From the NCBI GenBank assembly GCA_000165345.1, contig CM000434.1, positions 160,001 through 224,000 of the forward strand: a stretch of DNA of 64,000 bases, written 5' to 3'. Position numbers and translations under genes: made by a program. Below, one piece after another: positions 5,681 through 61,797 of the stretch; positions within the stretch are counted from its first letter, which is position 1, and every line of letters begins with the position of its first letter. The notes beneath the pieces were generated by a model. It was given only the letters and a program-made list of their open reading frames with translations, was not told the DNA's origin and did no database searches.

Positions 5681-6258
5681 TATTTCACATTATTAAGTTC
5701 AATATTTGTAGATTTAATTCAAATTTCTTTGAATATAACTTAATAGAAAATATTATTATTTATTAAAATTATACATTATATAGAATATATGTATTTAATA
5801 TTATTTATTGTACTGTTTCTATTATTTAAATTCTTCTTTTTTAAAAAAATAAGATTTACTATCAAAGAATACCAAACTTACTTATTTCAATGCACACGAC
5901 CCCCCAATTTTTTTATTACTTAAAAAATATTATTTGTTTTTCTAATTTGCATGTGGTGTCAATCATATACCGGTCTGCATGCAAAGGCGCTGAAATGCAA
6001 AAGGCGCCAAGGCCACTTACGTGGCAAGAAATAAAAATATTATACAGATTAAAAGGTGGACATGAATAATTAGTATAAAGAAAAATAATAATAATTCGCA
6101 CTTTTAGACTAAAAAAGATTTTTTTTTTTTTTTAATTAATTGAATAAAAAATATTTATGGATAAATCAGGTGATTATGTACAAATCTTAAGAATTGCTCA
6201 CTTACTCTTCGTAACTTAGGAGTTTAAGAGAAGAGAGAAAATATAGAGAAAAATAAAG
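5681..6258. promoter_or_regulatory. Bidirectional intergenic region between divergent genes, carrying a GC-rich motif island
   Basis: At 5967-6024 an otherwise >80% AT spacer contains TATACCGGTCT (ACCGGT), GCATGC, GGCGCT, AAGGCGCCAAGG and ACGTGG. Confidence 0.4.
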
Positions 6259-9200
6259 ATGGATCCTGTGGGAGCAATGAAGTCAATGATGGGAATGGTT
6301 GGATCTAACCTAGTTAGTTCAGCAAAACATGCAACTAAGCAAATGGTGAGTAAGATCCGTCAGAAAGCTGATCCCAGATCATATAGTAGCTCAAAAAAGA
6401 AAAAAAATAAAGCTGATAATGGTCAGAATATAGAAGGTACAAATATAAGTGATGACGATGATTTGAATGATTCAATGCTTCCTAATAGAAGAGATCATGG
6501 CAAAGAAGCAAGGAATAGAGATATAAATGGAGAAAATCTGGAAGTTAACAGTAATTTAACTCATGAATCATCAGATGACGAGTCAATTTTGGATTTTAGA
6601 GATCGAGTTGTAACAGAACAAGAATTCAAGAGATTAGCAGAACTTCTTGGTAGAGATATAAAAATGACAAATAGAGGTAATTCTGAAATGGAGAAACAAA
6701 TATGGTTAACTCCAAGAAGATTTAGGACTACAATACGATCAGTGCAGATTGAAAATCTAACAAAAATTGAACAGAAGAATGTATTTTTAGAATTTTCATT
6801 TGGAGGAACACTTACAGAAGTTAGACTATTGAATAGTAATACCGGCCAAGAAGTTCCAAGATTGTTGGGATATCCAGCATGCAAAGAATTTTTTACACAT
6901 ACTGTTGATATTAAACCGTTTTATATTGAAAATAATGATGAGTTACTTATTGATATTCCTGATGAAAATGGTAAAGACTATGATATGGAGCTCAAAAATA
7001 ATAATTCGATTGAAATTTCATTAGATGAAACTTTTGAATGGAGAGGTAGTTATTTACATTTAGAAAGGGAATTATTTAGAATTATTGCTTGGAGAGCTAA
7101 TTCAGCAACTGTTAATGAGTTATTAGGATATAATGAAGATATATTAAAAAATTATGCAACGGGAAGTGTTAATCAAATGATTACTTTATCAAAAAGAACA
7201 CATAATAATATATCAAATCCTATTTTTAGAATTACATTACAAATTATATTTCAAGAAATTTATGATTTTCAACTAAGCCTATCTCAATTCACTTTAAGAA
7301 ATATTAGTAATGACAATGAGAATTCCTCTCCTTCAGAACGAAAACATTCTCAAAATATTTATAATGATCATGAAATTGAATATAATCATGACAAAAAAAG
7401 TAACAAAAAGCAAACTAGTCGTGATAATACAAATATAATTAACGATCAAAATACTGTAAAAATTGATTTGAGAGATGATCAAGAATTAAATTTTAATGAA
7501 AAAGGAAGGCTTATTTCTAATAATCATTCAACATCTTGTAGATTGAATATCAAGTTCCCATCTTTTGGAATAGATAATCCTTTACCAACTAAATGTACTT
7601 CAACTTGGTCAGAATGTTATGAGAAACAAAATAAAATTATTAGATGGGATAATATTGGTATGATTCCTTTTAGAGGTACAATACATGAATTGGAAAGAAA
7701 TAATTTACATGCAAATTTAGAAATTAATTCAACTGGCAAAACTCATAATATTTTTAAATCTACAAAACAAGTCCATTGTACTTTTAATCTTAAAAATATT
7801 GTCTATTATCCCTATATTCAGACTGAAATTAAGCTTCCTGATGGAGAATCTTGTATACTTGAAGGAAAAATAGAATTTGGAAATATACCCAAATATCATC
7901 AATTGGGTAATATTTTAGAAATTGATGATGAAAATAAATTATATCTTATAATCAAAATTATTCGAATTGATAATTTAATCTTGAACATTTATGAAGTCAA
8001 CAATATTCTTCAAGATACTGAAAATGATGATTCTATGGATGTTTATGTTCAGTTAAGCTTTGATGGTAATCGAAAAGAAACGCCTGTAGTTTCTGGTACA
8101 TTACATCCACTCTTTCAAACTGAACTTACATTTATATTGGATTATATTGATCATGAAAAAAAGCCTAACGAACTTGACGCTCATTCTTTAGCCAAACTTT
8201 TAGAAAGAAAAGGTCCGATTGTTATTGATGTGTGGAGAAAAAATAAATCATCAATGGCACAACATTTAGGATGGACTGAAATTCATTGGAAAGATATTCT
8301 AATAAAAACTAATCATTCAAATTATTCTGGAAATGAATTTTCTGATTTAAAATTAAATCAACAATTCTCACCTTTAAAATTTGACCCTACTAATAATTTA
8401 ATGGACAATGCTAGTAATGCATGCTTAGGCGCCAACATGCTTAGGCGCCAAGAATACCGAAAATTTTATGATCGCAATATAGGTAAAGAAGTTGTATATG
8501 AAACAAGAGTATATCAGGATGCGAGTATATTATATAATTTAGGTCAAAGGCCCAGTTCTTTAGGGTCTTATACAAATGAAACAATCTCGCCGAAAGTATA
8601 TTTGGAAATATGGACAAAGCCTGATATAAGTTGCATGTATAATATTGGTTCAACGTCAGCATTACTAGTAAGAGGTAATAATGAAGTTGTGGGAGAAGTT
8701 TCTAAATATTTTGTTGATCGATTAAATAGAATTGTTGAGTGGTCAGGCATTGGTCCATCATTAAAGAATTCAAGAATAAGATCAAATATTTTTTATTGGG
8801 AATATGTTACTAAATCATTTGAGACTTGGGGAAGACAATATTCATATTATAGTTTGGATTCAAGAGGTGTAAGGCACTTACTTCCATCATTCTTACAACC
8901 TTTAAAACCTCTTACTGGTGTTGATAATTCCTCAAAAGTACATCATTTTATTCATTCTTTTCCATATTTACCAACTACAAATAATGAAATATGGAGAACT
9001 CCTGATTTATTCTTATTATCAAGACAAGGTACTCCATTTGATCATACATTATTGCAGGTATGTTTATTATTGGGTTTAAATAGAATAGCTTTTTTGGCAT
9101 GCGGTACTTTATTGAATAGAGATCCATATTCATGGGCAGTAACTATACATTATGAGTATATTATGAGTGAAAATGATGATTTATTTAATTTAAGTAAGGA

Positions 9201-11256
9201 TGGAAATTTATTTAAAAAAGAATCTCATGGAATTGGAGGTAGAAGTAGGAGAGTTTCTACTCTTAATTTTGGAAGAAATAAAAAACATAGTAATATGAGG
9301 TCAATATCACCAGCATTAATGAAGACAACATCTGATAGGAAGAATTATAAATCAGAAAAAAGTCATATATTAGGATCTAATCGAAGTAAAATGAGGTCAT
9401 TATCTCCAATTTCTATTAATCTTGGTCAAAGGATGCATAGGAAGTCATCTATTATTAATGATAATGAACATCGATTTAGTTTAAGTAAATCAACTGAAGC
9501 AATTCATGATCATAATCATAATACATCATCAAAAAATAGTATTAGACAAAATTCTATAAGATTTTATGCATTATTTTGGGATACTGTAAAACATGTTGTT
9601 TATAGAGTTAATGATATTGTTCAAGAATCAAAACATGATGAATTTATTCAATGGATTAAAGAAGAAGGATATGATATTAATCAGTTAAATGAATTAGCAT
9701 TAGAATCATTATTTTCTCAAAGAAATTATCATCAAGATAAATATAGAAATATACAATATAAACCAAATTTCTGTTTAAAAGTTATTAATAAGTTACCATA
9801 TAGAACTTTGGATTTATTGGTTAATAATAAAAATATATATGCAAATATACAACAAGTTAATGATCCATTAAAATTATCATATAATTTAAATGATAGTAAG
9901 CTTTGGTATTCATTCTTTCCAAAAAAAACTGATCAATTTAATCATATTAAAATGAATAATCAAAGAATTCAAGGAGAAATTGAAGGTAAAGGAATATTAA
10001 ATCAATTACCAATAACACAAAATAGTTCAAATATATCAGCATGTTTTTCATGGCCAATAATTAATCTTGTAACTGATACTACTAGTAATAAACCTGGAAA
10101 GAATAATAAAGGAAGATCAGTTACTGGTGATTATCATATTCATAATAATAATAGTAATAATGATTATTTTGATCAAGATCAATTTGGAAGATCTAATAAT
10201 AAAGATAAGAATATTAATGGTATTATTGGTAATGATCATAAGAGTAAAGGTAAAGCAAATAACGGTTTAAAATCATCTACTGGAATGAGTTTTGGATTAA
10301 ATAGGTCAAAAGATGAACATTCAAGTATAGAGAAGAAGTTTTTAGAGAATAATGTGATTATGGATGCTGAACTAGATTTATATTGTAGAAGTATTAATGA
10401 TGAGATTATGAGATATGTACAGATTCAAAGATTTCAAAAATCACGTACAATAGGTACAAGATGGAATAGAGAAAACGAGAATATGATATTTTTAAGAATG
10501 GGATTAAAGTTATTAGGTAAATGGGAGATGTCAGATCCATATACTCGTGATTATTATAAAAATAAGACTGAATTTTTGAAATGGAGAGAATCATTTTTAT
10601 CAACAGTACCAACAAAATATAGGATGAAATATGCAATATTGACTTTTCCATGTAATGTTCCAAAATGGATAGCACAACAAGTTTGGTTTAAATGTAGCTT
10701 TTTATCAAATGAGACTGATAAAAGATCAATATTTTCTTTATCAGTAGATATTAATAGTTGGCCAAATAATATTCAATCAATAAGGATATTAATATTGGTA
10801 GTACATCCTTTGAAATCTAATCAGCTTAGAAAGCTTCAATTATTACAAAAGATGAGTATATCAAATTCAGTTAGTAACAATAATATCAATAACAACAATA
10901 ATAATAACAATAATAGTAACAATATTCATCAAACAATGAAGATTAATATAAAAGGTCCTTCCAGGAATGAAAGAGAAAATATTTCTGATTCAATTAAAGA
11001 AGATAATAATAAAGGTAATGATAAAGTAACAAAGCAAGGTTTGGATAAATTAGAAATTCCAGAATTCTCAAATGAATTATTGATAAAGGAGAGTGATAAA
11101 AAGAGCGTGGATGAGGATAAGGATGAGAAAAAGAAGGAAGATAAAGAGGAAAAGAAGAAAAAGGATAACAATAGCGAAAAAGAGAGAAGAAGAGCATCTT
11201 CAATTATATTCTCAGACGAAGAAGATGAGCCTGAGCTTAAACTGTTACATCCATAA
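6259..11256 (+). CDS. Large hypothetical protein (1665 aa) with a C2-like beta-sandwich segment, an Asn-rich insert and a Lys/Glu/Asp-rich C-terminus
   Basis: Long ORF with a verified ATG. The C2-like stretch is DVYVQLSFDGNRKETPVVSGTLHPLFQTELTF. The low-complexity region is NNNINNNNNNNNNSNN and the tail is KDEKKKEDKEEKKKKD. No confident family assignment. Confidence 0.55.
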   Translation: MDPVGAMKSMMGMVGSNLVSSAKHATKQMVSKIRQKADPRSYSSSKKKKNKADNGQNIEGTNISDDDDLNDSMLPNRRDHGKEARNRDINGENLEVNSNLTHESSDDESILDFRDRVVTEQEFKRLAELLGRDIKMTNRGNSEMEKQIWLTPRRFRTTIRSVQIENLTKIEQKNVFLEFSFGGTLTEVRLLNSNTGQEVPRLLGYPACKEFFTHTVDIKPFYIENNDELLIDIPDENGKDYDMELKNNNSIEISLDETFEWRGSYLHLERELFRIIAWRANSATVNELLGYNEDILKNYATGSVNQMITLSKRTHNNISNPIFRITLQIIFQEIYDFQLSLSQFTLRNISNDNENSSPSERKHSQNIYNDHEIEYNHDKKSNKKQTSRDNTNIINDQNTVKIDLRDDQELNFNEKGRLISNNHSTSCRLNIKFPSFGIDNPLPTKCTSTWSECYEKQNKIIRWDNIGMIPFRGTIHELERNNLHANLEINSTGKTHNIFKSTKQVHCTFNLKNIVYYPYIQTEIKLPDGESCILEGKIEFGNIPKYHQLGNILEIDDENKLYLIIKIIRIDNLILNIYEVNNILQDTENDDSMDVYVQLSFDGNRKETPVVSGTLHPLFQTELTFILDYIDHEKKPNELDAHSLAKLLERKGPIVIDVWRKNKSSMAQHLGWTEIHWKDILIKTNHSNYSGNEFSDLKLNQQFSPLKFDPTNNLMDNASNACLGANMLRRQEYRKFYDRNIGKEVVYETRVYQDASILYNLGQRPSSLGSYTNETISPKVYLEIWTKPDISCMYNIGSTSALLVRGNNEVVGEVSKYFVDRLNRIVEWSGIGPSLKNSRIRSNIFYWEYVTKSFETWGRQYSYYSLDSRGVRHLLPSFLQPLKPLTGVDNSSKVHHFIHSFPYLPTTNNEIWRTPDLFLLSRQGTPFDHTLLQVCLLLGLNRIAFLACGTLLNRDPYSWAVTIHYEYIMSENDDLFNLSKDGNLFKKESHGIGGRSRRVSTLNFGRNKKHSNMRSISPALMKTTSDRKNYKSEKSHILGSNRSKMRSLSPISINLGQRMHRKSSIINDNEHRFSLSKSTEAIHDHNHNTSSKNSIRQNSIRFYALFWDTVKHVVYRVNDIVQESKHDEFIQWIKEEGYDINQLNELALESLFSQRNYHQDKYRNIQYKPNFCLKVINKLPYRTLDLLVNNKNIYANIQQVNDPLKLSYNLNDSKLWYSFFPKKTDQFNHIKMNNQRIQGEIEGKGILNQLPITQNSSNISACFSWPIINLVTDTTSNKPGKNNKGRSVTGDYHIHNNNSNNDYFDQDQFGRSNNKDKNINGIIGNDHKSKGKANNGLKSSTGMSFGLNRSKDEHSSIEKKFLENNVIMDAELDLYCRSINDEIMRYVQIQRFQKSRTIGTRWNRENENMIFLRMGLKLLGKWEMSDPYTRDYYKNKTEFLKWRESFLSTVPTKYRMKYAILTFPCNVPKWIAQQVWFKCSFLSNETDKRSIFSLSVDINSWPNNIQSIRILILVVHPLKSNQLRKLQLLQKMSISNSVSNNNINNNNNNNNNSNNIHQTMKINIKGPSRNERENISDSIKEDNNKGNDKVTKQGLDKLEIPEFSNELLIKESDKKSVDEDKDEKKKEDKEEKKKKDNNSEKERRRASSIIFSDEEDEPELKLLHP

Positions 11257-11466: not shown

Positions 11467-12525
11467 TTAGAAATCTGCATTCAAATCAAACTTTTGGTCA
11501 TCTTGATTGACCATAACTCCAGCCATTTGATATTCACCAACTCTCTTTTCGAAGAAGTTAGTTTTACCTTGAAGTGAAATAAGGTCCATCCAATCAAAAG
11601 GATTAGAAACGTTGTAGATTTTTGGAATATCCAAGGCAAAAAGTAATCTATCAGCAACAAATTCAATATATTGGGCCATAAGTCTCGAATTCATACCAAT
11701 AAGATCAACAGGAAGAGAGTCACAAAGAAAGTTTCTTTCAACTTCAACAGCTTCTGATATGATTTGTTGTACTCTAGGAGCTGGTAATTTAAATTTAAGG
11801 GCTTTATATATTAAACAAGCAAAATCAGCATGGAGACCTTCATCACGACTAATAAGTTCATTAGAAAATGTGAGTCCAGGCATAAGTCCACGTTTTTTAA
11901 GCCAAAAAATTGCACAAAAGCTACCAGAAAATAGAATTCCTTCAACAGCACAGAATCCAATAATTCTTTCAGCAAAAGATCGCTCAGAATTCATCCATTT
12001 AGTTGCCCATTCTGCTTTCTTTTTTACAGCTTCAATATGAGAAATTGCTTCAAAGAGCATTTGACGTTCTTTAATTTCAGTAATATATCTATCAATAAGT
12101 AATGAATAAGTTTCACTATGTATTTGTTCAATAGACATTTGAAAAGCATAATACATTCTAGCTTCCGGTATTTGTATTTCTCTAAGGAAATTTACTGCTA
12201 AGTTTTCCATAACAATACCATCACTTGCAGCAAAGAATGCTAAAACATATTTGATAAAATGTCTTTCAGGGTCTTTAAGACTTTCCCAATCTCTAGTATC
12301 TTGACTTAGATCAATTTCTTCAGTAACCCAAAACGACGCTTCAGCTTTTTTATACATTGACCAAATATCTTTAATTAATTCTTTCAATTCATTTCTATTT
12401 TCTCGGCTGTATTTAAGCATTGGTTCATTAACTTGATTTATTTTTACTTCATTCACAAGTTTTTCAATATTTTCTTCATCTTTTGTTTCCTTTGTTAAAA
12501 TTACATTATTATTTTCCTCTGTCAT
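11467..12525 (-). CDS. RNR2: Ribonucleotide reductase small subunit R2 (class Ia, di-iron/tyrosyl radical)
   Basis: Canonical R2 motifs are present: [23 protein letters not shown] (Asp ligand), [10 protein letters not shown] (Glu/His ligands plus radical Tyr), [11 protein letters not shown] and [10 protein letters not shown]. The C-terminal R1-binding tail ends FDLNADF. ATG verified. Confidence 0.9.
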
Positions 12526-13419
12526 CTTTTTTTTCCTTTTTTTAAATTGATTTTAGTTACTCTCTATGTTTACTATTTTGATATTAATATTAATTTACGT
12601 GTGTGTTATTATTATATTATTAATATTTAAAAAATATATATATTTTTTAAAAGAAAAAAAAGAAAAACAAATATTATTACAAATAAATATTTTTATTTTA
12701 AAAAATTTATTAATTTTCTTTAATTTGTCTTTGTGCATATTGTTTTCTTTCAATTTATTGATTTACCTGAAATTTATTATTACTTTCTGTGTATTGGCGC
12801 CTAATGACCTGTTAAAAAAGGTATCGATAAATGTATTTATAAGATAATTAAATGATGGGGGGCGGTGAGTTCAAAAAATGTGGGAAAAGGCGGGCTATTT
12901 GCATGTCAATAGTAGTAGTTTTTACGATAGTTATTTAAAATTTTATTGATAATAAATGAATAAATCATTAATAGAATAAAACATTATTGTAGGAACAAGA
13001 ATAGAAATGTCGAGATATAAAGTATTTATTCTAGAGATTTAAGATTTGAAAAATACGATTTTACTTACTTTCAACTTTTTCTTTTTTCCCACTTTCTTCC
13101 ATTTTTTTTCTCCCCCAATTATTTTATATTTGTATTAATTATTTGAATAAGAGAAATAATTTATTTCATTTTTATTTTTTAAGTAAAAGAAAGAAATATA
13201 GATGGAAAAATTATAAGAAGGAAGAAAAAAATAAATAGGAAAGAAAAATTCAAAAATTCTTTTTTTTTCTCTAAATATTTTCAAGTATGAGACGGCGTAT
13301 AGGTACCCGGTATACTCACTCTCCCCTCTTTTTCATCAATTTTTTGCACACAAAAAAAAAATAAAAAACAAGAAAAATAAAAAAATTTGAATCAAATTAA
13401 TTAATTAAAGGAGAAAAAA
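12526..13419. promoter_or_regulatory. Shared divergent promoter region of R2 and the R2-like gene, with E2F-type and other GC motifs
   Basis: ATTGGCGCCTAAT at ~12793-12803; GGGGGGCGG at ~12857; AAAAGGCGGGCTATTTGCATGTC at ~12885-12908; GTACCCGGTATACTC at ~13296-13310. Confidence 0.45.
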
Positions 13420-14539: not shown

Positions 14540-14546
14540 NANNNNN
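14540..14546. other. Assembly gap (N run)
   Basis: Sequence reads gnannnnnag. Confidence 0.95.
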
Positions 14547-15178
14547 AGTTTTTTTTTTGATTCTTACTAATTATTATCTATAATTATTAGAAAATAATAT
14601 ATTAATGTTATTAATAATTCAAATTGTTTATATTAATTCTTAATCTTTTATTACTTAACATAATATGAAGATCCAAATCGAAATATTAAACAATTGATTT
14701 GAAATAGAAGTAAAAGATATTAAAACTATTAAAAAAAAGAAAATAGGAATAGAGAATAGAGAATAAATATATGAACTAATAATAATATATATAAACATTG
14801 AAAGTAAAATAAATAAGGAAATAGATATTTTTCTTTTGACACTAAATTTATTTATTATCCTAATAACTATATAAAGTGTCCATATATTATTGTTATTATA
14901 TTTTACATATATTTTTCCTGTAAAAATAAATTATGTTTAAAATCAACTCAACTCAATCTTTTATTTCAAAAATAACAATAATGTTTAAAACAATAAATCT
15001 TTCATATCATAACCCTTTTTTTTCAACTTTTCATTTATTTTTTCTCCACTATAAAAAAATGACGTGTCAAAGCTTCCCGCCCAATTCCATTTAATATATT
15101 ATCAAATATACATTTTTGAATGGAATTCATTCATGCAGGCATTATATACATGTTATTGGCGCCATTTGAAATTTGTAT

Positions 15179-16549
15179 TTAAGATCTTACCATTAATCTT
15201 CTAGAGTTTGGATTTTGGATTCTAGCTGATTCAGCAACCTCTGTAGTAGTGGTAGTGGTAGTAGTGGTAGTTGTAGTTGTGGTAGTTGTAGTTGTGGTAG
15301 TTGTAGTTGTAGTAGTTGTGGTAGTTGTGGTTGTAGTAGTAGTTGATGTAGAAGTTGATGATGTAGAAGTTGTTGATGTAGAAGTTGTAGGTACTGGAAT
15401 AGGTGGACCAAACTTATTTGTAAAGTTATTTAAAGCCAAAGCATCTCCCTTGTTAAAGATTCCAAAAGCTGGGAAAAATGAATTGTTATCTTTATCAATA
15501 CCAACAAGTCTATAATCAAATGAAGAAGGTAATGGTTCCAAAGGAGTGCCAGAAATAAATTCTGGTAATACATTATCATAAGTAACCACAGCAAAGAATA
15601 AAACTGTAATTAATCCTGTTGGATTAACATTTGGTTTTAATGATGGATAACTCAAACCTCTACCAAGTAAAATTAATCCACCATCTGGTTGACGGCCAAC
15701 AGCTTTTACAATAGCACAAACATTCACATGCTCAGATTTACCAAAGAATGGACCATTAGTATAAGTCTCTGCTCTACATACTTCATTCTTATCTGTCATA
15801 TAATCCAAAATAAGTGATTGAGAATTATCTTGATGTTCAGCAGTTGCTAAACTACAATGTTGTGGCAAACTATTAAGAGACATAATAGAAGGAACAACAA
15901 ATTTACCCTTAACCATATTATATCCAAATACAACTTCATCTTGAGCCCTATTACATGCACCTTTTGCAGCAAATTTACCTCCCCAAAATTTCTCAATACC
16001 TCTCATATCAATATCTCTTGTATCTGTTAATAAATCCAACATTGTACCATACATCATACCAGTTGGAATTACATCAGGTTGTAAACCAACTTCCAAAATA
16101 CACATTAAATCACGACTATTTTGTATTAAATCATCAACACTCGTTATATTGTAAATTGTACCTTTTTCACAATGACCATCTCTTGTAAAAGGAAGAGTTA
16201 AATAATTTCTATTTTCAACTCTTGGTCCTCCAAATATTGGAATACCTGGAATATTAAATGATTTAGATTCAACTCTTTGATCATTAGAATCTGATAAACT
16301 ATTTACATTTTGTGAAAATCTATCTCCTCTATTCATTAATGGATCAACAACTCTTTTTGAAAGTAATTGTGCTCTATTTCTAAATGAATCCATATTCCCA
16401 CCAGAATTTGGTTGAAATGAAGAGCCTTGTTGTGGTAATGAAGAAGAAATTCCTGTTGGAATACAACTAACTTTACCAAAATCCAAAATTAAACCCAAAA
16501 CAAAGTAAAATATAGATACCTTAAATATATTATTACTAATATTCATCAT
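15179..16549 (-). CDS. Secreted Thr-rich mucin-like glycoprotein
   Basis: ATG verified (MMNISNN...). Signal peptide IFKVSIFYFVLGLILDFGKVSC, a ~370-aa Cys-containing globular region, then TTSTSTTSTSSTSTSTTTT followed by an uninterrupted run of about 40 Thr, a classic O-glycosylated mucin stalk. No TM helix detected. Confidence 0.7.
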   Translation of the reverse strand: MMNISNNIFKVSIFYFVLGLILDFGKVSCIPTGISSSLPQQGSSFQPNSGGNMDSFRNRAQLLSKRVVDPLMNRGDRFSQNVNSLSDSNDQRVESKSFNIPGIPIFGGPRVENRNYLTLPFTRDGHCEKGTIYNITSVDDLIQNSRDLMCILEVGLQPDVIPTGMMYGTMLDLLTDTRDIDMRGIEKFWGGKFAAKGACNRAQDEVVFGYNMVKGKFVVPSIMSLNSLPQHCSLATAEHQDNSQSLILDYMTDKNEVCRAETYTNGPFFGKSEHVNVCAIVKAVGRQPDGGLILLGRGLSYPSLKPNVNPTGLITVLFFAVVTYDNVLPEFISGTPLEPLPSSFDYRLVGIDKDNNSFFPAFGIFNKGDALALNNFTNKFGPPIPVPTTSTSTTSTSSTSTSTTTTTTTTTTTTTTTTTTTTTTTTTTTTTTTTTTEVAESARIQNPNSRRLMVRS

Positions 16550-17689: not shown

Positions 17690-20600
17690 ATGTCAAAATA
17701 CACATTCACTGAATATAGAAGATTGAATAATTCTATATTCAGATTGGATGTATTTCCATTCATTACTATTTATATTGTTTTAATTTCAATCTTATTAGGA
17801 GAAATCTTCAGTTTAAGTAAAACAATCACTTATAAAGATGTTTTTGATTCATTCATTTATTTAATAAATTTCATACAAAATCTTAATAATTTAAATAATA
17901 CCATAAATTCGGTACCAGTACAAAATAATGAAATATTTAATGATTTAATATCAAATAATACAAATTATTTAAATGCTTCTGAATTGGATGATTCAAATTT
18001 AAGTGAAGAATTACAACTTATTATTGATAATGTTCCAATTAAATATATTGTTGCAATTTTTATCACAATTTTAATAAATTTATTAACTTTTCTTATGACT
18101 CAATGGAATTTGAAATTTAAAAGTATTATTTGTTTTAGTAAAATAAAAAAAAAATCAAATGGAACTTGTACAAGTTTAAATAATAAAACCACTACACATA
18201 TTATGGTAAATAGTTCCAAATATCCAAGTGAACTTTGTCCTTTAAAATATTCAACATGTATTGAACATGTTGGAAAACTTAAAGATTTTTATTCTTTAAC
18301 AAAAATTAAATCATGTTCAATTATTAATATGAACAAATCTTTTATTATACAAGTTGATGCAATTGATTATTATAAATATAAATCAGAAATTGAGAAAATT
18401 CTTTTAAAAAATATTAATAAAAGTGATAATTCCAATTTATTACCAAATTCTTCAAATATTAATTGGATAAAATTGATTAATTATGAAAAGAAAACTTTTA
18501 TATATAATAAATCAAAAGAAACTTTTATTAAAGCAAATTATCCAATAAATCTTCCAATAAAATCATATTTTGATCAATTAATACATAAAGGTGGTTTAAA
18601 TATGAATGAAATTATACTTCATAATAATTTATATGGAATTAATAATTATGAAATACCAAAAGAAAAATTTCTGGATTTATTTATTGAACAAATTATATCA
18701 CCTTTTTTCTTATTTCAAATATTTTGTGTATTACTATGGATACTTGATGAATATTGGCAAATGAGTTTATTTACTTTATTTATGTTATGTACTTAAGAGG
18801 CTCAAATGGTATTTAGAAGACTTAAAGAATCTGATGAAGTTAGAAATATGAGAAGACCATCATGTTTTATTCTTGTATATAGAGAATATACTTGGAAATA
18901 TATTAATACTGATCATTTATTACCTGGTGATATTATTGCAATTTCATCCACAATTTCTTCCAATTCTTTAAAAAATAAGAATTTTGATGAAAATAATAAT
19001 AATAATAATCAAGATGAAGAAGCAGTTTCTATTGCTCCTTGTGATTTTGTATTATTATCTGGAAGTATTACTGTAAATGAAGCAATGCTTACTGGTGAAT
19101 GTACTCCAAAAATGAAAGTATCAATGAATAATGACGAAGATGAAAATGAACAAGATAATAAATTGAATGAAAAGACTTTTGATATTGATGGATTTAAAAA
19201 TCATGTAATATTTGCAGGTACCAATATTATACTTACAAGATCTTCAATTGTTACAGAAAATAAAGAGTTCCAATCTATTATTAAAAAGATTTCAAATGAA
19301 TACCATAATTGTTATAATGTTGATAATATGAACTCTATTAAGAATCCAATGAACTTTAATGAAAAGTATAATAATAATGTCACTTCTTCTTACATTAAAT
19401 ATGATAATGATAAAATGATTTGTATTGGATATGTTCTTAGAACTGGATTTAATACTTATCAAGGAAAATTAATCCGTACAATTTCATCATCAGCTGAAAA
19501 GATCTCATCTAACAGTCTTGAATCACTAATTTTCTTAATGATGTTAATTTTTTGCTCATTAATAGCATCTTCTTATGTACTTTATTATGGAATTAATGAT
19601 CCTTCCAGAAATAAATTCAAATTAATTATCTCCTGCATTCACATTATAACTTCAGTTATTCCTCCAGAATTCCCCATCACACTTTCTGTTGCTGTAACTA
19701 TGGCAGTTGTTCAATTAACCAAAAAAAAGATTTATTGTACTGAACCATTTAGAATTCCATTTGCTGGTAAACTTAGAATATGTGCTTTTGATAAAACTGG
19801 TACTTTAACTAGTGATAAAATGATACCACATGGATTATTTGGAATTAACTTGTATAATAATGATGATACTTCTTGTATTACTTTTGATGATAATGATAAG
19901 TATAGTAATAACAATGAAGATAAGGATGAGATGAACAATAAAAAGTTAGCATCAGTATCGGGATCAAGGCAAGTGTTGGGATCAGAACCAATATCCAATT
20001 CTTCTGTTGATATACCATATTTATCTGATCTTATTATGGGATGTTGTAATGGACTTTCACTTAATGGAAAGACCTTGGTTGGAGATCCTATGGAAAAATC
20101 CATCAAAAAGAAATCATCCTGGAGAATTCATCACTCATCTGAAAATAATTATCATAACATTAAAGATAATTCAACATTTTCAATAGTTAGAAGATATCCT
20201 TTTTCACCAGAAGAACAAAGAATGACCAATATTGGAATTTTGCATATTCCTTCAGAAAAACAAAATTCATCATCAAGTAAATCTCAAACTTCTTCATCTT
20301 CATCTCAATCTCTATCTCCGTCTCATTCTGTAAAATTTCATAAAAGTCTTTCAAAACCTGATCCAAAAACTTATGGTCTTGTCATTTCTAAAGGAAGTCC
20401 AGAAATGATGCTTCAATTCTTTAAAAAAGATCCAGAATTTGATCAAAATTTATACAAAAATGTTGTACATGAATGTACTAAAAAAGGGTATCGTATATTA
20501 GCACTTGGTTCAAAATATTCTTGTATTAATGAAGTTAATAATCATCATTTAAAAAGAGAATTCTTTGAAAATGATTTAATATTTTGTGGTTTTCTTGCAT

Positions 20601-22072
20601 TATATTGTCCAATTAAAAAACATTCCAAATCTGTTATTCAAGAACTTAATCAAAGTAATCATCAATGTATTATGATTACTGGTGACAATATTCTTACAGC
20701 TTTCCATGTTGCAAAAAATGTATCAATTACCAATAATTGTAAAGATATACTCATTTTATCAAAATCTGATAATGAAAACTCTAATCATATTAATTATATA
20801 TGGAAATATTCAAATGGTAATATTTTTAATAAATTTGATAATAATTTAACTCATTTAATTCATATTAATAATGAATTTAATATTGGTATTACTGGTAATG
20901 TATTCCAATCTTTTATTGAAGACTTCAAAGAAACCAAAATACTTGAACAATTTCTTTTATTTACAAAAATATATGCAAGAATGTCTCCAAAAAATAAACA
21001 AACTCTTATTAATCTTTATAATAATATGGGTAATATGACTTTAATGTGTGGAGATGGTACCAATGATGTTGGTGCTTTAAAACATTCTCATGTTGGTATT
21101 TCTCTTCTTTCAAATGAATCATCATCAGATTCTAATAATAAAGATAATAATAATTCTCCATTTAATATTAAAAAAAATCAAAAATCCAACTTTTTTGAAA
21201 TTAAAAAAGATATTGAAGCCAGAATTAGACGTGGTGAAAAGCTTACAAAAGCTCAAATTCAACAAGAAATCTTGAAAGAATTCCAAAATATGGATGAAAT
21301 ACCAAAAGTAAAACTTGGAGATGCTTCTATTGCTTCACCTTTTACATATAAAGGTGAATCTCCCAATTGTATTATTAAACTTGTTAGATATGGAAGATCA
21401 ACTTTAACCACAGTATTATTAATGTATAAATTAATGGGATTAAATAGTATTGTATCTGCATTTTCTATGAGTGTATTAGCTCATGATGGAGTTAAATTTG
21501 GTGATTTTCAAACTACTGTAGAATCCATTATTATGAGTGGCTTATTCTTTCTTGTACTTAAAAACAAGCCAGCTAAAAAGCTTGTTCCACAAAAACCACC
21601 AAATAGTATTTTCAGTCCTATGATATTTTTATCATTTATTATTCAAGCATTAATTCATTTATTTGTTATTTATTTTGGATGGAAAATTTCATATTCTTTA
21701 ATGCCATTAAACTATTCAACAAATATTGATGGACCTTTTGAACCAAATATTATTAATACAACAATGTATTATTTATATACAGCTTGTCACTTAGCTTGTT
21801 TTCTTTCAAATGCACAAGGTCATCCATTTACTACTCCATTATCTGAAAATAAATATCTTATTTACACTTCAGCTTTAGTTATTTCATTCTTAATTACTTC
21901 AATTCTAGGAATATTTCCACATTTAAATATATTATTTTCATTGGTAACTTTACAAAGTAAATATTATCAATCAATTCTAATACTTCTTGTATTATTTGAT
22001 ATTTTTGGTACTCTATTAATTAATCAATTATTTAATCAACTTCATATTTACTTTGACAAATGCAAACATTAA
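17690..22072 (+). CDS. P5A-type cation-transporting ATPase (Spf1/ATP13A1-like); one reading frame interrupted by an in-frame TAA at 18794-18796
   Basis: The two listed ORFs 17690-18796 and 18806-22072 are in the same frame, and the M2 helix region continues across the stop (...FTLFMLCT*EAQMVFRRLKESDEVRNM). P-type motifs ICAFDKTGTLT, ITGDNILTAF and GDGTNDVGALK are present, plus the P5 M4 motif SVIPPEFPITLS. The low-complexity insert NENNNNNNQDEE is in the A-domain region. Confidence 0.75.
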
Positions 22073-22196: not shown

Positions 22197-28010
<5,814 letters not shown>

Positions 28011-39670: not shown

Positions 39671-39896
<226 letters not shown>

Positions 39897-42930: not shown

Positions 42931-43291
42931 TATATACAATGATCAAACTCTTCCAACCCTAATTTTTTAACAATTAATAAATCAATTTATATATACATAT
43001 ATATACAATATAAATATAAGTAATCAATTTTAATTTTTTTTTTGTAAATGTTTTTCTTTGCATGACTTTTTGTGTGCAATTTCCATAATATTAATTTTTA
43101 TGTGGTCAGGCGCCACTGAATGCCGGTATAGGACAAATAACTAATAAATATAATGAAATTATTAAAGTGAAAATAATAAAAAATTTGATTTATAAAAACC
43201 CCAAAAAAATCCCACAAATTAGCAAATAAAAGTTTAATAATACAATATAAATATTAATTTAAAAAAATCAAGTTTGGAACACAAACCTAAT

Positions 43292-44551: not shown

Positions 44552-45064
44552 GTTTAATTTAATAAATAAATTTATATTTTATTTTAATTTTAAATTTTAG
44601 GAACCAAAAAATTTATTCAATTGATTTTATTTTTGACTCCATAATTAAACAAGAAATTGACATTAGTAAAAATATTATCAAAATATAATAAAAACTATAC
44701 CTTTATTATTTTGTTGACTATTTATAATATTTACCACTTAAATTCAAATGAATTGTCATATTTTTCTTCTTACATGCATACATGCCTACATACCTACATG
44801 TATTTTGTCATTTTTCTACTTTTTTTCAAGAAATTTTCCATTTACATATTACCTCTTTTCCCGCCACCCCCATACCGGTATACACATAATTATTAATTTG
44901 TTTTTAATGTGGATGAAATTAATATGCATGCATGCATGTAAAATGTTGAAAATGACGTGTATATATACATACAATAAAAATGTGTAGATAAATATTTTTT
45001 CTTCTAAAGCATTGAATAACTATAATAATAATATTTGAATATATAAATATATATATTTAAATAT

Positions 45065-45096
<32 letters not shown>

Positions 45097-45334
45097 ATAT
45101 ATATTTATTTACTTATATTAATATATAAAAAGTCAACAATAATTAATTTGAAAATAGGATTATATTGAAAGAAAAAACAAAGATAATAATAATAAGAAAG
45201 TAAAAAGAGAAATTTAATCAGTATTTGCTCTTGTTAATATTAAATTTAGTACAATTTTAAAAAAAAAGGTATATATTTTTAAAAAAATACATTTATATTG
45301 ATTAAAAGTACAATTTTCAAATAACAAAAAGAAA

Positions 45335-46577: not shown

Positions 46578-55643
<9,066 letters not shown>

Positions 55644-58331: not shown

Positions 58332-58363
<32 letters not shown>

Positions 58364-58623
58364 ATGTGGATGCATTTTTCTTATTTAAAAAAAAATTACG
58401 TGTTATACCGGTATATAAAAAATTTTGTTAAGGGGGAAAAAGTCGAGTAGAAAAAAAAAAATTTATGAATTAAAAAACAAATTGTTAGAGAAGAGAAAGT
58501 AGTTGAAAGTGTTTTGTCAAAGTTAAGTTTCAAAAAATAAGGACAATTCTGTTTGAAATAATTAAATTGATTTAAGAAAAGGTTTTGTAAATTAAAAATA
58601 AACCTTAAAAAGAAAAAAGAATA

Positions 58624-60183
58624 ATGAAGCTTTACTCTGTATTGGCATCATTAAGTTTATTATTGCTTAATTTCACAATTCAAGCTGAAAGCCAAGACTA
58701 CCCAAAAAATGAAAATCTTATCAACTTGAAAGAATATGAATTCAAAGAAAAAGTATTAGACGATACGACAGATCAAATATGGTTTGTTAAATTCTATGCC
58801 CCTTGGTGTGGGCATTGTAGGCATTTATATCCAGAAATATTAAAAGTTTCTGAACATTATAAAGGGAACGAAAAAGTAAAAATAGCTAAAGTTGATTGTA
58901 GTGTGGAAACAAAACTATGTAAAGAACAAAACGTTGTTAGTTATCCGACAATGAGAATTTTTTCAAAAGGAAATTTAATCAAACAATATAAACGTCCAAA
59001 AAGAACTCACACAGATATTATTAAATTCATTGAGAAAGGAATTCAGCCTGACATAATCAAGATTCAATCATATGATCAAATTAATGAACTTAGCTCAGAC
59101 TTATCAGCATATCCAATTCTACTGATAATGTTTAATTCAGAGACTGAAATTAACCAAAATTTAGAATTTCTTGAAGAAATTGTTAAAAAGAATGATTTTG
59201 AAGTAACAATAGCAGTAACTTATGCAAAAAGTGTTAAAAGCCGTGTTCTAGAAAATACAAAAGATCACAAATTTAGTAACACTGACTTGTGCTTAACATC
59301 CCCATGTATTACTATGATTGGAAAAGATAACTTCTCACCATCAATACTATTAGTTAAAGAAACTGAATTTACTCTCAACTTTATGCAACAATACAGATTT
59401 CCATTCTTAAATGCACCATCTAGAATGGAATTCATTGAATACCTTAATAGTGGAAATCTTGTAGTTATTATGGGAATCAAAGAAAATGTTCAAATTAATC
59501 ATGAAATTAGTGGTGATTTTATTACTGATTTCGGTAAAGTTGCTGAAAAGGTTAGAAGAGAAATGTTCCTACCTATAAAGTTTTCAGAATCAGAAACTCC
59601 TAGAGGAATTTTGTTTGCAATCGTTGATTTTGTATCTTACTCATCACTTTTTAGAGAATTTGGAATCACTAACTTCAACTTTATACAAGGATATGAAATT
59701 GTGGTTTCTGATGGACTGAAGTATTATTACAACCGTCCAGATATGATGAAAATCCCTGTTTTATTTGAAACTATAAAATTAATTTCCAATCAAGATTCAA
59801 AAGTTCCTAAGCTAAAAGCATACTCTATATTTAATCTAAATACTATTAGGAGGTTTTTTTATGACCTTAATGTAATTATCAGCGATATCTTTTATAAATC
59901 ATGGATTCATGCAATTGCTGTCACAGTCATTGCATTCCTGATTGTGGCTGGGCTCACAGTATTCTGTTGCCTTATTTTCTTTGGTGACCTCGCAGATTCA
60001 TATTTATTACATGATGATATGGCTACTATTGAAATGCAAAATATGGCGCCAAGTTCAGAAAAAAAAGTAATTAATAATAAAGACGAAAAATCAGATAATG
60101 AACTGGAGAATAGTTCTTTAAGTGATACAGTACGTTTTTCTGACGAAGAGCCTGAATTGGAGGAACCTAGAAAGGAAAGGTAG
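58624..60183 (+). CDS. Thioredoxin-domain (PDI-like) single-pass membrane protein (TMX-like)
   Basis: Signal peptide MKLYSVLASLSLLLLNFTIQA. Thioredoxin active site FYAPWCGHCRHLYPE with the downstream VSYPTMRIF. C-terminal TM IAVTVIAFLIVAGLTVFCCLIFF and an acidic cytoplasmic tail. Confidence 0.7.
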   Translation: MKLYSVLASLSLLLLNFTIQAESQDYPKNENLINLKEYEFKEKVLDDTTDQIWFVKFYAPWCGHCRHLYPEILKVSEHYKGNEKVKIAKVDCSVETKLCKEQNVVSYPTMRIFSKGNLIKQYKRPKRTHTDIIKFIEKGIQPDIIKIQSYDQINELSSDLSAYPILLIMFNSETEINQNLEFLEEIVKKNDFEVTIAVTYAKSVKSRVLENTKDHKFSNTDLCLTSPCITMIGKDNFSPSILLVKETEFTLNFMQQYRFPFLNAPSRMEFIEYLNSGNLVVIMGIKENVQINHEISGDFITDFGKVAEKVRREMFLPIKFSESETPRGILFAIVDFVSYSSLFREFGITNFNFIQGYEIVVSDGLKYYYNRPDMMKIPVLFETIKLISNQDSKVPKLKAYSIFNLNTIRRFFYDLNVIISDIFYKSWIHAIAVTVIAFLIVAGLTVFCCLIFFGDLADSYLLHDDMATIEMQNMAPSSEKKVINNKDEKSDNELENSSLSDTVRFSDEEPELEEPRKER

Positions 60184-60377: not shown

Positions 60378-61157
60378 ATGGGCAAAAGAAGACAGAAACA
60401 ATCATTAAATGACTTAGATATAGCCCAAAAGTTGGCTTTACCTGTGGATGAAGTTACTGAAGACCCTGAATACCAAGAAGCCATGAATTACTTAAAAAGT
60501 GTACGGGAGGAAGCAAAGTTAATAACAGCATGTAAGGTCTATACAAATGAATTAGAGAGTGATAAAGAAGAAACTTTGACTACAAAAGTCAAAGATACAA
60601 AGAATAATATTACAGACAATCAGAATCCTCAGTGCAACTGTAATTATGGTGACTTTGAATATTTAACAAACTACCATATTTCAGAGAATCTATCAATAAT
60701 CAGAAAAGACCCTGCTTATGATAAATGTAAATCTGAAATCATTGAATATATACTTTCACAAAAAGAAAAAGTCTCAACATTGACGGAAGCTTTACAAACT
60801 GAAGAGATTATTTCTGTTTCAAACTGGGAAGAAATCATTCAGTCGGCCCAAATTCCATGTATTACTATAGGTAAATGGAATTCATACAATTGGTCCAACT
60901 TATTAGAATATTTTGCTAATCAATTTGATGAAAGTACACTGGACTCCTTCTTATTGGATACTAATAAAATTCAATGGGTTATTCTTGCTCTCATTTCTGT
61001 TCATACTATTGACTCATATAATCCGCATGTTTCATTTTGCATGCAAAGAATTAAAAGGTATTTGGAATCGAATGATTTCTCGCACTTAAGTAAGGACGAC
61101 CATTTTCGTATTGAAACCATTATTATTATTATTAAATACATCTATAATCAATTTTAA
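60378..61157 (+). CDS. Gemin2 (SMN-interacting protein 1)-like protein, tentative
   Basis: The N-terminal LALPVDEVTEDPEYQEAMNYLKSVREEAKLITAC parallels the Gemin2 segment LPVE...PQEYLRRVQIEAAQCP. Later blocks (LLEYFANQFDESTLDSFL, WVILALISV) parallel Gemin2 LEYLSNWFGERDFT / WLYALLACL. Recall-based alignment only. Confidence 0.4.
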   Translation: MGKRRQKQSLNDLDIAQKLALPVDEVTEDPEYQEAMNYLKSVREEAKLITACKVYTNELESDKEETLTTKVKDTKNNITDNQNPQCNCNYGDFEYLTNYHISENLSIIRKDPAYDKCKSEIIEYILSQKEKVSTLTEALQTEEIISVSNWEEIIQSAQIPCITIGKWNSYNWSNLLEYFANQFDESTLDSFLLDTNKIQWVILALISVHTIDSYNPHVSFCMQRIKRYLESNDFSHLSKDDHFRIETIIIIIKYIYNQF

Positions 61158-61797
61158 TAGCCTTATTTATATACTAATTATTTACTTTTCGTTTATTTGA
61201 AACTTTCTCCATGTGTTATAAAGAATTGAGATTAATACTAAATATAAAAATCATAGTGTAAGTAAAAAGTAATACATGAATTCAAATTAGTTAATGAAAT
61301 CAACTAAAATACAACAAACTTTAATTAGAGTGTTTTTTTTTCTTAAAATATATATATAAATGTGATCATAATATATTAGTTAACCATTTGAATTAAATCA
61401 TTTAATACTTAATTTATCATAAATTTGTTATAGGTATTTGATAATTTGATTCCTAAATTAATACGAGTACAAAATTGGAGGAGTAAAAAATTAGAAAATA
61501 TCTACAAATAATATTATGCTCTTTTTAAATTGTTTACTCATTTGGATTTTTCTTTTTTATTATTAAATTACAAATTATATTTTATTTATATATTTATAAA
61601 ACAACATTTGGCGCCACTTCACAATTGAAAATTAACTTTACGAGAAATTACTTTTGTATTAATTTGAAGAAGATAAGTAAGTCAAATCGAAATAAAAATT
61701 ATTGGGATTGTTTACAATAGCTACCAATTCCCTTAGAAGTAAAACTAGCACTAAATCTAGGGAAATTACTTGAAAGAATTGGAATTATTAATAAGCA

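Follow-up and report, generated by a model that had tools for sequence, protein, structure and literature searches.

Short GC-rich words recur in a window of 64,000 nucleotides, i.e., the whole stretch of DNA that was analyzed and to which all positions refer, and they raise the question whether they are regulatory sites of the E2F/DP type. The window belongs to chromosome 6 of Cryptosporidium parvum: four of its proteins match C. parvum Iowa II entries in every residue, and its DNA is 99.93% identical to the 1.31-Mb chromosome record CP029785.1. Thus, the genus Cryptosporidium, which a sequence-only reading had proposed, was borne out and could be narrowed to the species. The GC content was 26.8%, lower than the roughly 30% given before. 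Pfam scans revealed no E2F or DP genes within the window. The following genes are referred to below:

857-5680, minus strand: clostripain/EGF gene
6259-11256, plus strand: CEP76-like gene
11467-12525, minus strand, and 13420 to about 14529, plus strand: adjacent pair of ribonucleotide reductase (RNR-R2) small-subunit genes
15179-16549, minus strand: 456-aa mucin-like gene
17690-22072, plus strand: P-type ATPase gene
22197-28010: condensin-subunit gene
ATG at 35303: rhomboid gene
36440-36655, minus strand, ATG at 36655: CDC26-like small ORF
37262-38038, minus strand: 258-aa gene
ATGs at 40889 (minus strand) and about 41480 (plus strand): divergent pair of TSP1/EGF adhesin genes
43292-44551, plus strand: BRCT-domain gene
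45335-46249, plus strand: 304-aa gene
46578-55643, minus strand: giant gene
ATG at 60378: SIP1/gemin2-like gene, with the end of a thioredoxin/PDI-like CDS upstream
61798-62691, plus strand: GET4 gene

Frequency and form of the core words

GGCGCC was found 12 times (6003, 8428, 8444, 12796, 15158, 37038, 37119, 43109, 46711, 48762, 60045 and 61610), versus 0.13 on average and never more than 2 in dinucleotide shuffles of the window, in agreement with the earlier estimate of about a dozen copies and less than one by chance. GGCGGG/CCCGCC was also found 12 times (12889, 15076, 17268, 36114, 36151, 36390, 38451, 38566, 41214, 44860, 52868 and 62570), versus 0.49 expected from the shuffles. The observed counts were reached in none of 100 shuffles. 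The coordinates given before were accurate to within 0-3 nt, apart from 36400 (correctly 36390) and 38572 (38566), and the earlier list contained all sites except the in-CDS copies 52868 and 62570.

The enrichment was specific for these words. Twelve of the 16 GCGC tetramers of the window fall inside GGCGCC, and the control hexamers GCCGGC, CGCGCG, GCGCGC and GGGCCC do not occur in the window. In a de novo ranking of non-coding 6-mers, the highest places were taken by CCCGCC, GGCGCC, TGGCGC and the known ApiAP2 motif TGCATG. The 60-nt flanks of different sites were at most 47% identical (mean 31%), and, therefore, the sites are not a repeat family.

SSCGCC is common to all 24 sites. T precedes it at positions -2 and -1 in 15-16 cases, and A follows it at +1 and +2 equally often (binomial p against a background of 0.39: 0.006 for 16/24 and 0.017 for 15/24). 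Sites matching the E2F/DP consensus, i.e., TTTSSCGC or the palindrome TTTSGCGCSAAA, were present; the 8-mer TTTSSCGC occurs eight times, versus 0.46 expected, and is exact in seven of the 24 core sites. Judged by sequence, GGCGCC and GGCGGG/CCCGCC represent two versions of a single E2F-type element, in which SSCGCC is flanked by T-rich sequence on the 5' side and by A-rich sequence on the 3' side. Core, flanks and 8-mer count support the E2F/DP consensus reading made before, and the site that had been called perfect, TTTGGCGGGAAA, was found at 36111-36122. One wording was too strong: the pattern [AT]TGGCGCC[AT]A, said to be present almost always, is complete in four of the 12 GGCGCC sites, but all 12 have TGGCGCC on one of the two strands. 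The forms TTTCCCGCC/GGCGGGAAA, said to be frequent, fit five of the 12 GGCGGG-type sites.

Location and conservation of the intergenic sites

Seventeen of the 24 sites are non-coding, although sequence outside long ORFs makes up only 24.9% of the window (binomial p = 3e-6); the other seven are in CDS. Twelve of the 17 intergenic sites are 183-719 bp upstream of an ATG, three are 811-1087 bp upstream of the rhomboid gene, and two (15076 and 15158) are in a convergent 3'-3' spacer, where no start codon follows. The earlier statement that nearly all sites lie 100-800 bp upstream of start codons was thus too strong as well; it held true for the 12, but not for the distal three or the convergent two. 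By our own tally of sites and gene boundaries, at least one core site is present in 10 of 15 promoter-containing spacers and in one of six convergent spacers.

The genes with sites include both RNR-R2 genes and the CDC26-like, BRCT and CEP76-like genes, which have roles in DNA synthesis or the cell cycle, as well as genes unrelated to the cell cycle (adhesins, rhomboid protease, P-type ATPase, GET4). Condensin subunits are classical E2F-type targets elsewhere; upstream of the condensin-subunit gene of the window no core site was found.

The intergenic sites and their conservation in up to six further species of the genus, as seen in alignments, are:

6003-6008: GGCGCC in the clostripain/EGF–CEP76-like divergent promoter, 323 and 256 bp from the respective ATGs; GGCGCC in C. 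canis and C. serpentis, AGCGCC in C. andersoni; conserved block ACGTAAGTGG..GGCGCC
12796-12801: GGCGCC in the divergent promoter of the RNR small-subunit pair; TCATTAGGCGCCAA identical in C. canis, degenerate AGCGCC/GGCGCT in the same spacer of gastric species
12889-12894, minus strand: GGCGGG (CCCGCC on the minus strand) in the RNR divergent promoter; conservation in C. canis not found
15076-15081, plus strand: CTTCCCGCCCAA in the 3'-3' spacer between RNR paralog and 456-aa gene; GGCGGT and a conserved GACACGT flank in C. canis; no annotated start codon downstream
15158-15163: GGCGCC 16 bp past the stop codon of the 456-aa gene; GGCGCC in C. canis at matching distance from its stop codon
17268-17273, minus strand: GGCGGG in a divergent promoter, 422 bp from the P-type ATPase gene and 719 bp from the 456-aa gene; CCCGCC aligned in C. 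canis
36114-36119, minus strand: TTTTGGCGGGAAA, a site of full length with the rhomboid ATG 811 bp downstream; TTGGCGGGAA retained by chipmunk genotype I, C. canis and SRR31860986, nearly so by C. felis
36151-36156, minus strand: GGCGGG, followed by G-box-like TTGTGGGGG; kept in chipmunk genotype I; 53rd percentile of conservation
36390-36395, plus strand: TTTCCCGCCAAA, full-length site directly 3' of the CDC26-like ORF; retained by chipmunk genotype I and C. ubiquitum, TTTTGGCGCCAAAA at the equivalent position of C. canis
37038-37043: ATTGGCGCCAAA, 383 bp upstream of the CDC26-like ATG; retained by chipmunk genotype I, C. canis and C. ryanae, GGCGCT in C. ubiquitum; 97.5th percentile of spacer conservation
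37119-37124: GGCGCCTACCCCAC, an E2F core combined with a G-box-like sequence, located 464 bp upstream of the CDC26-like ORF; retained by chipmunk genotype I, C. ubiquitum, C. canis and SRR31860986; 94th percentile
38451-38456, plus strand: TTTCCCGCCCAA, located 413 bp upstream of the 258-aa gene; retained by chipmunk genotype I, C. canis and SRR31860986; 95th percentile
38566-38571, plus strand: TTTCCCGCCAAT, located 528 bp upstream of the 258-aa gene; C. ubiquitum alone shares it; 48th percentile
41214-41219, plus strand: CCCGCCAAAAC in the divergent promoter of the two adhesin genes; identical in 7/7 species, including C. felis and C. ryanae; 99.7th percentile
43109-43114: GGCGCC within the conserved block ATGTGG.CAGGCGCC...CCGGTATA, with the BRCT-domain gene beginning 183 bp downstream; kept in 6/7 species; 99.1th percentile
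44860-44865, plus strand: TTTCCCGCCACCCCC, with the 304-aa gene beginning 475 bp downstream; conservation in the aligned species not found; 11th percentile
61610-61615: TTTGGCGCCAC, with the GET4 gene beginning 188 bp downstream; kept in C. ubiquitum, unaligned in C. felis

The sites are among the best-conserved blocks of the spacers, and the hexamers are kept at orthologous positions while the surrounding spacer has diverged, as under purifying selection. Motif hexamers had a mean conservation of 0.67, whereas the mean over all hexamers of the spacers was 0.46 (permutation p = 1.5e-4). Five of the 10 ranked spacer sites were at or above the 94th percentile, two of them (41214 and 43109) above the 99th. 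Conservation extends to C. ryanae for these two and to C. serpentis for 6003; 38566, 44860, 48762 and 52868 are conserved in no more than one other species. Together with the 10 of 15 promoter spacers, this conservation is consistent with the earlier suggestion that much of the locus may be under E2F-type control.

Copies in coding sequence and at gene 3' ends

The seven copies in coding sequence are:

8428-8433: GGCGCC in the CEP76-like CDS, first copy of the 16-bp tandem CATGCTTAGGCGCCAA, with TGCATGC just before; C. canis keeps GGC GCC, gastric species are without the site
8444-8449: GGCGCC in the second tandem copy, frame AGG CGC CAA; rare Arg codon CGC kept in C. canis, AGA AGA in gastric species
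46711-46716: GGCGCCAACCCCAC in the giant gene, 133 bp before the stop codon and adjoining a convergent spacer; frame AAG GCG CCA, rare Ala codon GCG kept in 5/7 species
48762-48767: GGCGCC in a low-complexity part of the giant-gene CDS; ACCGCC in chipmunk genotype I, no alignable orthologous sequence in other species
52868-52873, plus strand: CTTCCCGCCAAA in the giant-gene CDS, coding strand TGG CGG GAA; protein conserved, but four species use AGA/AGG for the Arg, and chipmunk genotype I alone shares CGG
60045-60050: ATGGCGCCAA at the 3' end of the thioredoxin/PDI-like CDS, whose stop codon follows 138 bp later; the SIP1/gemin2-like ATG is 333 bp downstream; GAAATGCAAAA.ATGGCGCCAA identical in C. 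ubiquitum and C. felis, rare GCG codon used
62570-62575, minus strand: TTAGGCGGGAT in the GET4 CDS, 121 bp before the stop codon; ATTAGGCGGGAT identical in C. ubiquitum and C. felis, rare Arg codon CGG used

GGCGCC occurs five times in CDS, versus 0.13 expected from synonymous-codon shuffling. The codons involved are rare (CGC is used for four of 585 Arg codons, GCG for nine of 449 Ala codons), and five of the seven copies are kept at the DNA level via rare codons. This suggests that the kept copies may act as internal, antisense or downstream-gene promoters. The copy at 48762 is probably without function, and that at 52868 probably arose by chance or recently. The E2F/DP1 motif has been found at most 100 bp upstream of lncRNAs, including antisense lncRNAs (Li 2021, PMC7840661). 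The sites 15158, 46711, 62570 and 8428/8444 are located where antisense promoters would be expected, so that a connection can be proposed, and 15158 is a candidate promoter of an antisense transcript.

The known E2F-like motif and its possible reader

By their sequence, the words are the E2F-like promoter motif that has already been described for C. parvum, first on chromosome 6, and the observation is thus correct yet ordinary. TGGCGCCA and GGCGGG are the most over-represented upstream motifs of C. parvum (Oberstaller 2013, PMC3734150), belonging to the families motif 3, [C/G]GCGC[G/C] / TGGCGCCA, and motif 4, GGCGGG; the first notice, as over-representation in non-coding DNA of chromosome 6, is credited to Bankier 2003 (PMC3734150). 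The cores of these families were both over-represented in the window, and organism, chromosome, upstream and non-coding bias and the co-occurrence with TGCATGCA and G-box motifs are alike. There is no substantive difference from Oberstaller 2013; the modest additions to the knowledge of the field are the deep conservation of single sites, followed over 64 kb, and the rare-codon copies in CDS. The motif was found upstream of 161 of 200 co-expression clusters, and AP2 domains bind other motifs (PMC4117751), and E2F is the top motif in ATAC-seq peaks (Xiao 2025, bioRxiv 10.1101/2025.01.17.633476). The motif appears to mark most promoters of the pathogen, and the window is a textbook illustration.

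Canonical eukaryotic E2F/DP sites (TTTSSCGC, the palindrome named above, and the plant sites TTTCCCGCC and TTTGGCGGG) share with the window sites the core, the T/A flanks, the palindromic and one-sided versions and the presence at promoters of ribonucleotide reductase small subunits. In contrast to canonical systems, Cryptosporidium is without a known Rb-family partner (PMC3734150), and the window motif appears far more pervasive, at most promoters and beyond G1/S genes.

In our view it is quite probable that the words are the known E2F-like cis-regulatory elements of C. parvum and that E2F/DP binding is the likeliest mechanism. The element, (T)TT[GG/CC]CGCC(A)AA, palindromic as TTGGCGCCAA or one-sided as TTTCCCGCC, would reside mainly in the short promoter-holding spacers of a compact genome and be kept by purifying selection. 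Winged-helix heterodimers of E2F (cgd1_1560, cgd6_1430) and DP (cgd7_3650, cgd8_1850; PMC12246861, bioRxiv 10.1101/2025.01.17.633476) would bind the CGC-containing core, with TTTGGCGCCAAA and TTTCCCGCC as putative targets. Binding would mark or open promoters, many of them bidirectional, at the RNR-R2 pair, the CDC26-like, BRCT and CEP76-like genes and many unrelated genes; the subset in coding sequence and 3'-3' spacers would probably act as promoters themselves, for the gene that follows or for antisense lncRNAs.

It is unlikely that the motif is functional but read by another protein (ApiAP2, zinc-finger or Myb), so that its E2F resemblance would be coincidental. Very few putative regulatory components have been confirmed experimentally (2025 review, PMC12246861), and clusters with peaks at any of the time points have the motif upstream (PMC3734150), as do many non-cell-cycle genes, in the window as well. 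However, the sites fit the E2F consensus in core and flanks, and factor family and motif abundance coincide in one apicomplexan genus: E2F/DP is a canonical transcription factor family that only Cryptosporidium has kept and other apicomplexans have lost (PMC3734150, PMC4117751, PMC12246861).

We consider it improbable that the sites are mainly chromatin, boundary or transcript-end elements, e.g., determinants of nucleosome-free regions or gene 3'-end elements, rather than promoter sites that activate specific genes. The long convergent spacer has the same site density (2 sites / 650 bp) as promoter spacers, the conserved sites 15158, 46711, 60045 and 62570 lie between 138 bp before and 16 bp after stop codons, and open chromatin is generally marked by the E2F motif (bioRxiv 10.1101/2025.01.17.633476). 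Against this stand the unequal shares of promoter-containing and convergent spacers with a core site and the lncRNA data (PMC7840661), which explain 3'-end sites as antisense promoters; moreover, such a role is compatible with E2F/DP binding and no true alternative to it. A chance or compositional artefact, i.e., GC-rich islands in AT-rich DNA or remnants of dispersed repeats, as the small number of sites (24) and the four poorly conserved ones might suggest, was refuted by the shuffles, the control words, the dissimilar flanks and the cross-species footprints, and is extremely improbable.

Because they are conserved across deep splits in the genus, the sites 41214, 43109 and 6003 are good targets for a functional test of E2F binding. 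A more tentative idea is that 8428/8444, 46711, 60045, 62570 and 15158 operate within coding sequence or near gene 3' ends under dual constraint, the rare codons GCG, CGC and CGG being fixed across intestinal species to preserve the motif, and that motif load is lineage-specific. In the syntenic 21-kb RNR locus, eight core sites were found in C. parvum and nine in C. canis, versus none in C. andersoni and two in C. serpentis; either the E2F regulon may have grown in the intestinal clade, or it may have decayed in the gastric one.

Origin, counts and form of the core words

Four proteins encoded in the window were residue-for-residue identical to entries of Cryptosporidium parvum Iowa II (EAK89769, EAK89770, EAK89774, EAK89775 and CAD986xx entries), and the DNA was 99.93% identical to part of CP029785.1. 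Therefore, the window is part of C. parvum chromosome 6, roughly from cgd6_660 to cgd6_880, and the sequence-only reading had named the right genus. The locus tag of the SIP1-like gene is CPHLJ_6g860. For the BRCT protein, the best named match among 90%-identity cluster representatives, which hid the names parvum and hominis, was chipmunk genotype I (85%). The window contains 19 ambiguous bases (N) in short runs at 14540-14546, 24127-24154 and 58331, some of them within the condensin-subunit ORF; these runs suggest that the assembly is an older or consensus one rather than CP029785.1 itself.

The GC content of the window is 26.8%. GGCGCC was found 12 times, versus a mean of 0.13 and a maximum of 2 in dinucleotide-preserving shuffles of the window, and GGCGGG/CCCGCC was also found 12 times, versus 0.49 expected. 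The earlier count of about a dozen GGCGCC copies and the expectation of less than one were thus correct, but the assumed GC content of about 30% was too high. The earlier coordinates were accurate within a few bases, except for 36400 and 38572, which should read 36390 and 38566. The enrichment is sequence-specific: 12 of the 16 GCGC tetramers in the 64 kb were inside GGCGCC, and the control GC-rich hexamers GCCGGC, CGCGCG, GCGCGC and GGGCCC had no occurrence in the window. An unbiased ranking of all 6-mers of the non-coding DNA, with an order-2 Markov expectation as reference, was led by TGCATG, CCCGCC, GCATGC, GGCGCC and TGGCGC once low-complexity words were set aside. The shuffles, the Markov expectation, the control hexamers and a synonymous-codon shuffling all spoke against a compositional artefact, and chance or composition is excluded as the origin of the sites. 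The sites are also not a dispersed repeat, because the 60-nt flanks of different sites are unrelated (identity at most 47%, mean 31%). A search for tRNA and structured-RNA genes in the spacers found none.

After orientation, all 24 sites could be written as (T)TT[GG/CC]CGCC(A)AA, i.e., one motif in two forms; TTTGGCGCCAAA and TTTCCCGCCAAA are such candidate E2F/DP targets. At each of the two positions 5' of the core, T was present in 15-16 of the 24 sites, and the same count was obtained for A at each of the two 3' positions (binomial p = 0.006 for 16/24 and 0.017 for 15/24, versus a background of 0.39). The canonical E2F 8-mer TTTSSCGC occurred 8 times in the window, versus 0.46 expected. GGCGCC had been described as almost always embedded in [AT]TGGCGCC[AT]A; the full pattern was present in only 4 of 12 copies, whereas TGGCGCC on either strand was present in all 12.

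Placement relative to genes and inside coding sequence

The gene map was refined with Pfam and with gene calls from orthologous loci. Long ORFs make up 75% of the window; the other 25% contained 17 of the 24 core sites (binomial p = 3e-6), although this part is more AT-rich (22.7% GC). Nearly all sites had been placed 100-800 bp upstream of start codons. This was true for 12 intergenic sites at 183-719 bp, many of them in divergent promoters, but not for five others; three sites preceded the rhomboid gene by 811-1087 bp, and sites 15076 and 15158 were in a convergent 3'-3' spacer. Upstream sites were found at the divergent pair of genes for the small subunit of ribonucleotide reductase (RNR), a CDC26-like ORF, a BRCT-domain gene, a CEP76-like gene, two TSP1/EGF adhesins, the rhomboid protease, a P-type ATPase and GET4. 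No core site was present upstream of the condensin-subunit gene.

Small genes and gene pairs with upstream core sites
11467-12525 (-), RNR small subunit, canonical (Pfam E = 8.5e-102)
13420-~14529 (+), RNR small subunit, diverged paralog (Pfam E = 4e-38; annotated 'duplicated adjacent gene')
36440-36655 (-), CDC26-like ORF, 71 aa

Synteny of the divergently transcribed RNR pair extends to C. andersoni and C. serpentis. For the paralog, the ORF in the window terminates at 14439, whereas the gene as called (369 aa) continues to ~14529, shortly ahead of the Ns at 14540-14546. The CDC26-like ORF sits between the rhomboid gene and a 258-aa gene and is preceded by two E2F-type sites, both conserved, at 383 and 464 bp. 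Its counterpart, called as a gene of 72 aa in both chipmunk genotype I and C. ubiquitum, has a weak ANAPC_CDC26 Pfam match in the latter.

Within coding sequence, GGCGCC occurred 5 times versus 0.13 after synonymous-codon shuffling (0 of 1000 shuffles reached 5), and GGCGGG/CCCGCC occurred twice versus 0.34 (P = 0.058). Two of these copies, 52868 and 62570, had been overlooked in the sequence-only reading. Five of the seven sites were kept as DNA through otherwise rare codons.

Core sites inside coding sequence
8428/8444, 16-bp tandem pair GGC GCC ... AGG CGC CAA: kept in C. canis; AGA AGA in the gastric species
46711, AAG GCG CCA (GCG is 9 of 449 Ala codons): kept in 5/7 species
48762: not conserved
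52868: not conserved; Arg kept but AGA/AGG in other species
60045, ATG GCG CCA: kept in C. ubiquitum and C. felis
62570, AGG CGG GAT: kept in C. ubiquitum and C. felis

The pair 8428/8444 belongs to a perfect 16-bp tandem duplication at 8419-8450 within the CEP76-like CDS, two copies of CATGCTTAGGCGCCAA that are read in two frames (ACLGAN / MLRRQ); C. canis has both GGCGCC copies without an exact duplication. Site 60045 is 333 bp upstream of the ATG of the next gene and the intervening spacer has only 195 bp, and, therefore, the site is simply part of the promoter of that gene. Sites 46711 and 62570 are 121-133 bp before stop codons and site 15158 is 16 bp past one, positions that are expected for antisense-transcript promoters.

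Conservation between species

The syntenic loci of chipmunk genotype I, C. ubiquitum, C. canis, the Logan assembly SRR31860986, C. felis, C. ryanae, C. andersoni and C. serpentis were compared. In five spacer alignments of seven species, the motif hexamers had a mean conservation of 0.67, whereas the 4,435 spacer hexamers as a whole averaged 0.46 (permutation p = 1.5e-4), and individual sites are under purifying selection. At site 41214, CCCGCCAAAAC was identical in 7/7 species, at 43109 GGCGCC was kept in 6/7, and sites 37038, 37119 and 38451 were at or above the 94th percentile, while 38566 and 44860 were not conserved in these alignments. Sites 12796, 15158 and 17268 were kept in C. canis and 61610 in C. 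ubiquitum; site 6003 was retained in C. serpentis as well as in C. canis, and C. andersoni had AGCGCC instead. Other conserved spacer blocks contained the known TGCATG and G-box-like motifs, CCGGTA(TA), ATGTGG and TGACGTGT.

At the syntenic 21-kb RNR locus, C. parvum had 8 exact core sites (window 1467-22526) and C. canis 9, versus 0 in C. andersoni and 2 in C. serpentis, with similar base composition; the spacers of these two gastric species were mostly unalignable (MAFFT), and 'not conserved' there says only that the spacer lacks an exact core, which falls short of a confident loss of the orthologous site. Only the degenerate AGCGCC/GGCGCT was left in them, at the RNR and CEP76/clostripain promoters. 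The difference of 0-2 versus 8-9 sites, at this one locus, may reflect a lineage-specific motif load, and this hint that gastric species have far fewer exact sites is mildly new. Also mildly new are the deep conservation at the level of single sites and the rare-codon preservation of the copies in coding sequence.

Probable reader and neighboring motifs

The feature itself is already known, in C. parvum and on chromosome 6. E2F-like motifs (TGGCGCCA; core [C/G]GCGC[G/C]; GGCGGG) are the most over-represented upstream motifs of C. parvum (Oberstaller et al. 2013, PMC3734150); according to that paper, Bankier et al. (2003) had earlier found the motif to be over-represented in chromosome 6 non-coding DNA. 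Of 200 co-expression clusters, 161 have the E2F-like motif upstream (Oberstaller et al. 2014, PMC4117751). E2F stands out most among the motifs in ATAC-seq peaks of sporozoites, and bidirectional promoters account for over half of these peaks (Xiao et al. 2025, bioRxiv 10.1101/2025.01.17.633476). The E2F/DP1 motif also precedes lncRNAs, at distances of up to 100 bp (Li et al. 2021, PMC7840661). In an earlier study, CGCCAA and GGCG cores had been found ahead of genes for DNA replication and glycolysis, without being named E2F (Mullapudi et al. 2007, PMC1779779). The sites almost certainly belong to this known functional class.

Cryptosporidium is the sole apicomplexan genus retaining E2F/DP, and C. 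parvum has two E2F genes (cgd1_1560, cgd6_1430) and two DP genes (cgd7_3650, cgd8_1850), according to a 2025 review, which also stresses that experimental validation is largely lacking (PMC12246861). The consensus match and this gene inventory support the E2F-type interpretation of the sequence-only reading, and E2F/DP is the probable reader of the sites. The heterodimers would bind them and activate or mark promoters, of which many are bidirectional, and this would extend to promoters embedded in upstream coding sequence and antisense promoters. That a different trans-factor reads the sites is unlikely. The AP2 domains of C. parvum bind TGCAT, CACACA and G-box, the E2F-like motif being assigned to a non-AP2 factor (PMC4117751). 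A mainly chromatin or boundary role is slightly less likely still; by our own tally, 10 of 15 promoter-containing spacers had at least one core site, versus 1 of 6 convergent spacers.

Further motifs recur in the window. The ApiAP2 motif 'AP2_1', TGCATGCA, occurred 7 times versus 0.40 expected (5976, 16956/16960, 28534, 44925/44929, 61038), and TGCATG, the most enriched 6-mer of the spacers that is not of low complexity (25 versus 2.5), was found throughout the non-coding DNA. Both are known (PMC3734150) and are often near E2F-type sites, e.g., 5976 beside 6003 and TGCATGC immediately before 8428.

CCGGTA/TACCGG occurred 14 times in the window versus 1.98 expected (5968, 13307, 28468, 34305-34312, 43123, 44873-44880, 58406-58413 and others), and three copies form the palindrome TACCGGTA. 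CCGGTA(TA), typically 110-220 bp upstream of start codons, was fully conserved in seven species 14 bp 3' of site 43109 and in the 44552-45334 spacer. It is absent from the table of named C. parvum motifs in the review (PMC12246861) and may be one of the published 'unknown' motifs.

ACACGT/ACGTGT, an ACGT-core, bZIP-like element present in conserved blocks, occurred 9 times in the spacers versus 1.05 (C. canis: 6 versus 0.65), e.g., as GACACGT beside 15076, CCCCACGT at 37119 and TGACGTGTAT in the 44552-45334 spacer. The window ORF 29164-30507 had a weak bZIP_2 match.

The E2F-type core was repeatedly followed within 0-12 nt by G-box-like CCCCAC/GTGGGG, at the positions listed here, with the sequences GGCGCCTACCCCAC, GGCGCCAACCCCAC, CCCGCCACCCCC, CCCGCCAAAACATGCCCCAC and GGCGGGTTGTGGGGG.

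Composites of core and G-box-like motif
37119-37132
46711-46724
44860-44871
41214-41238
36151-36168

This composite was conserved in other species.
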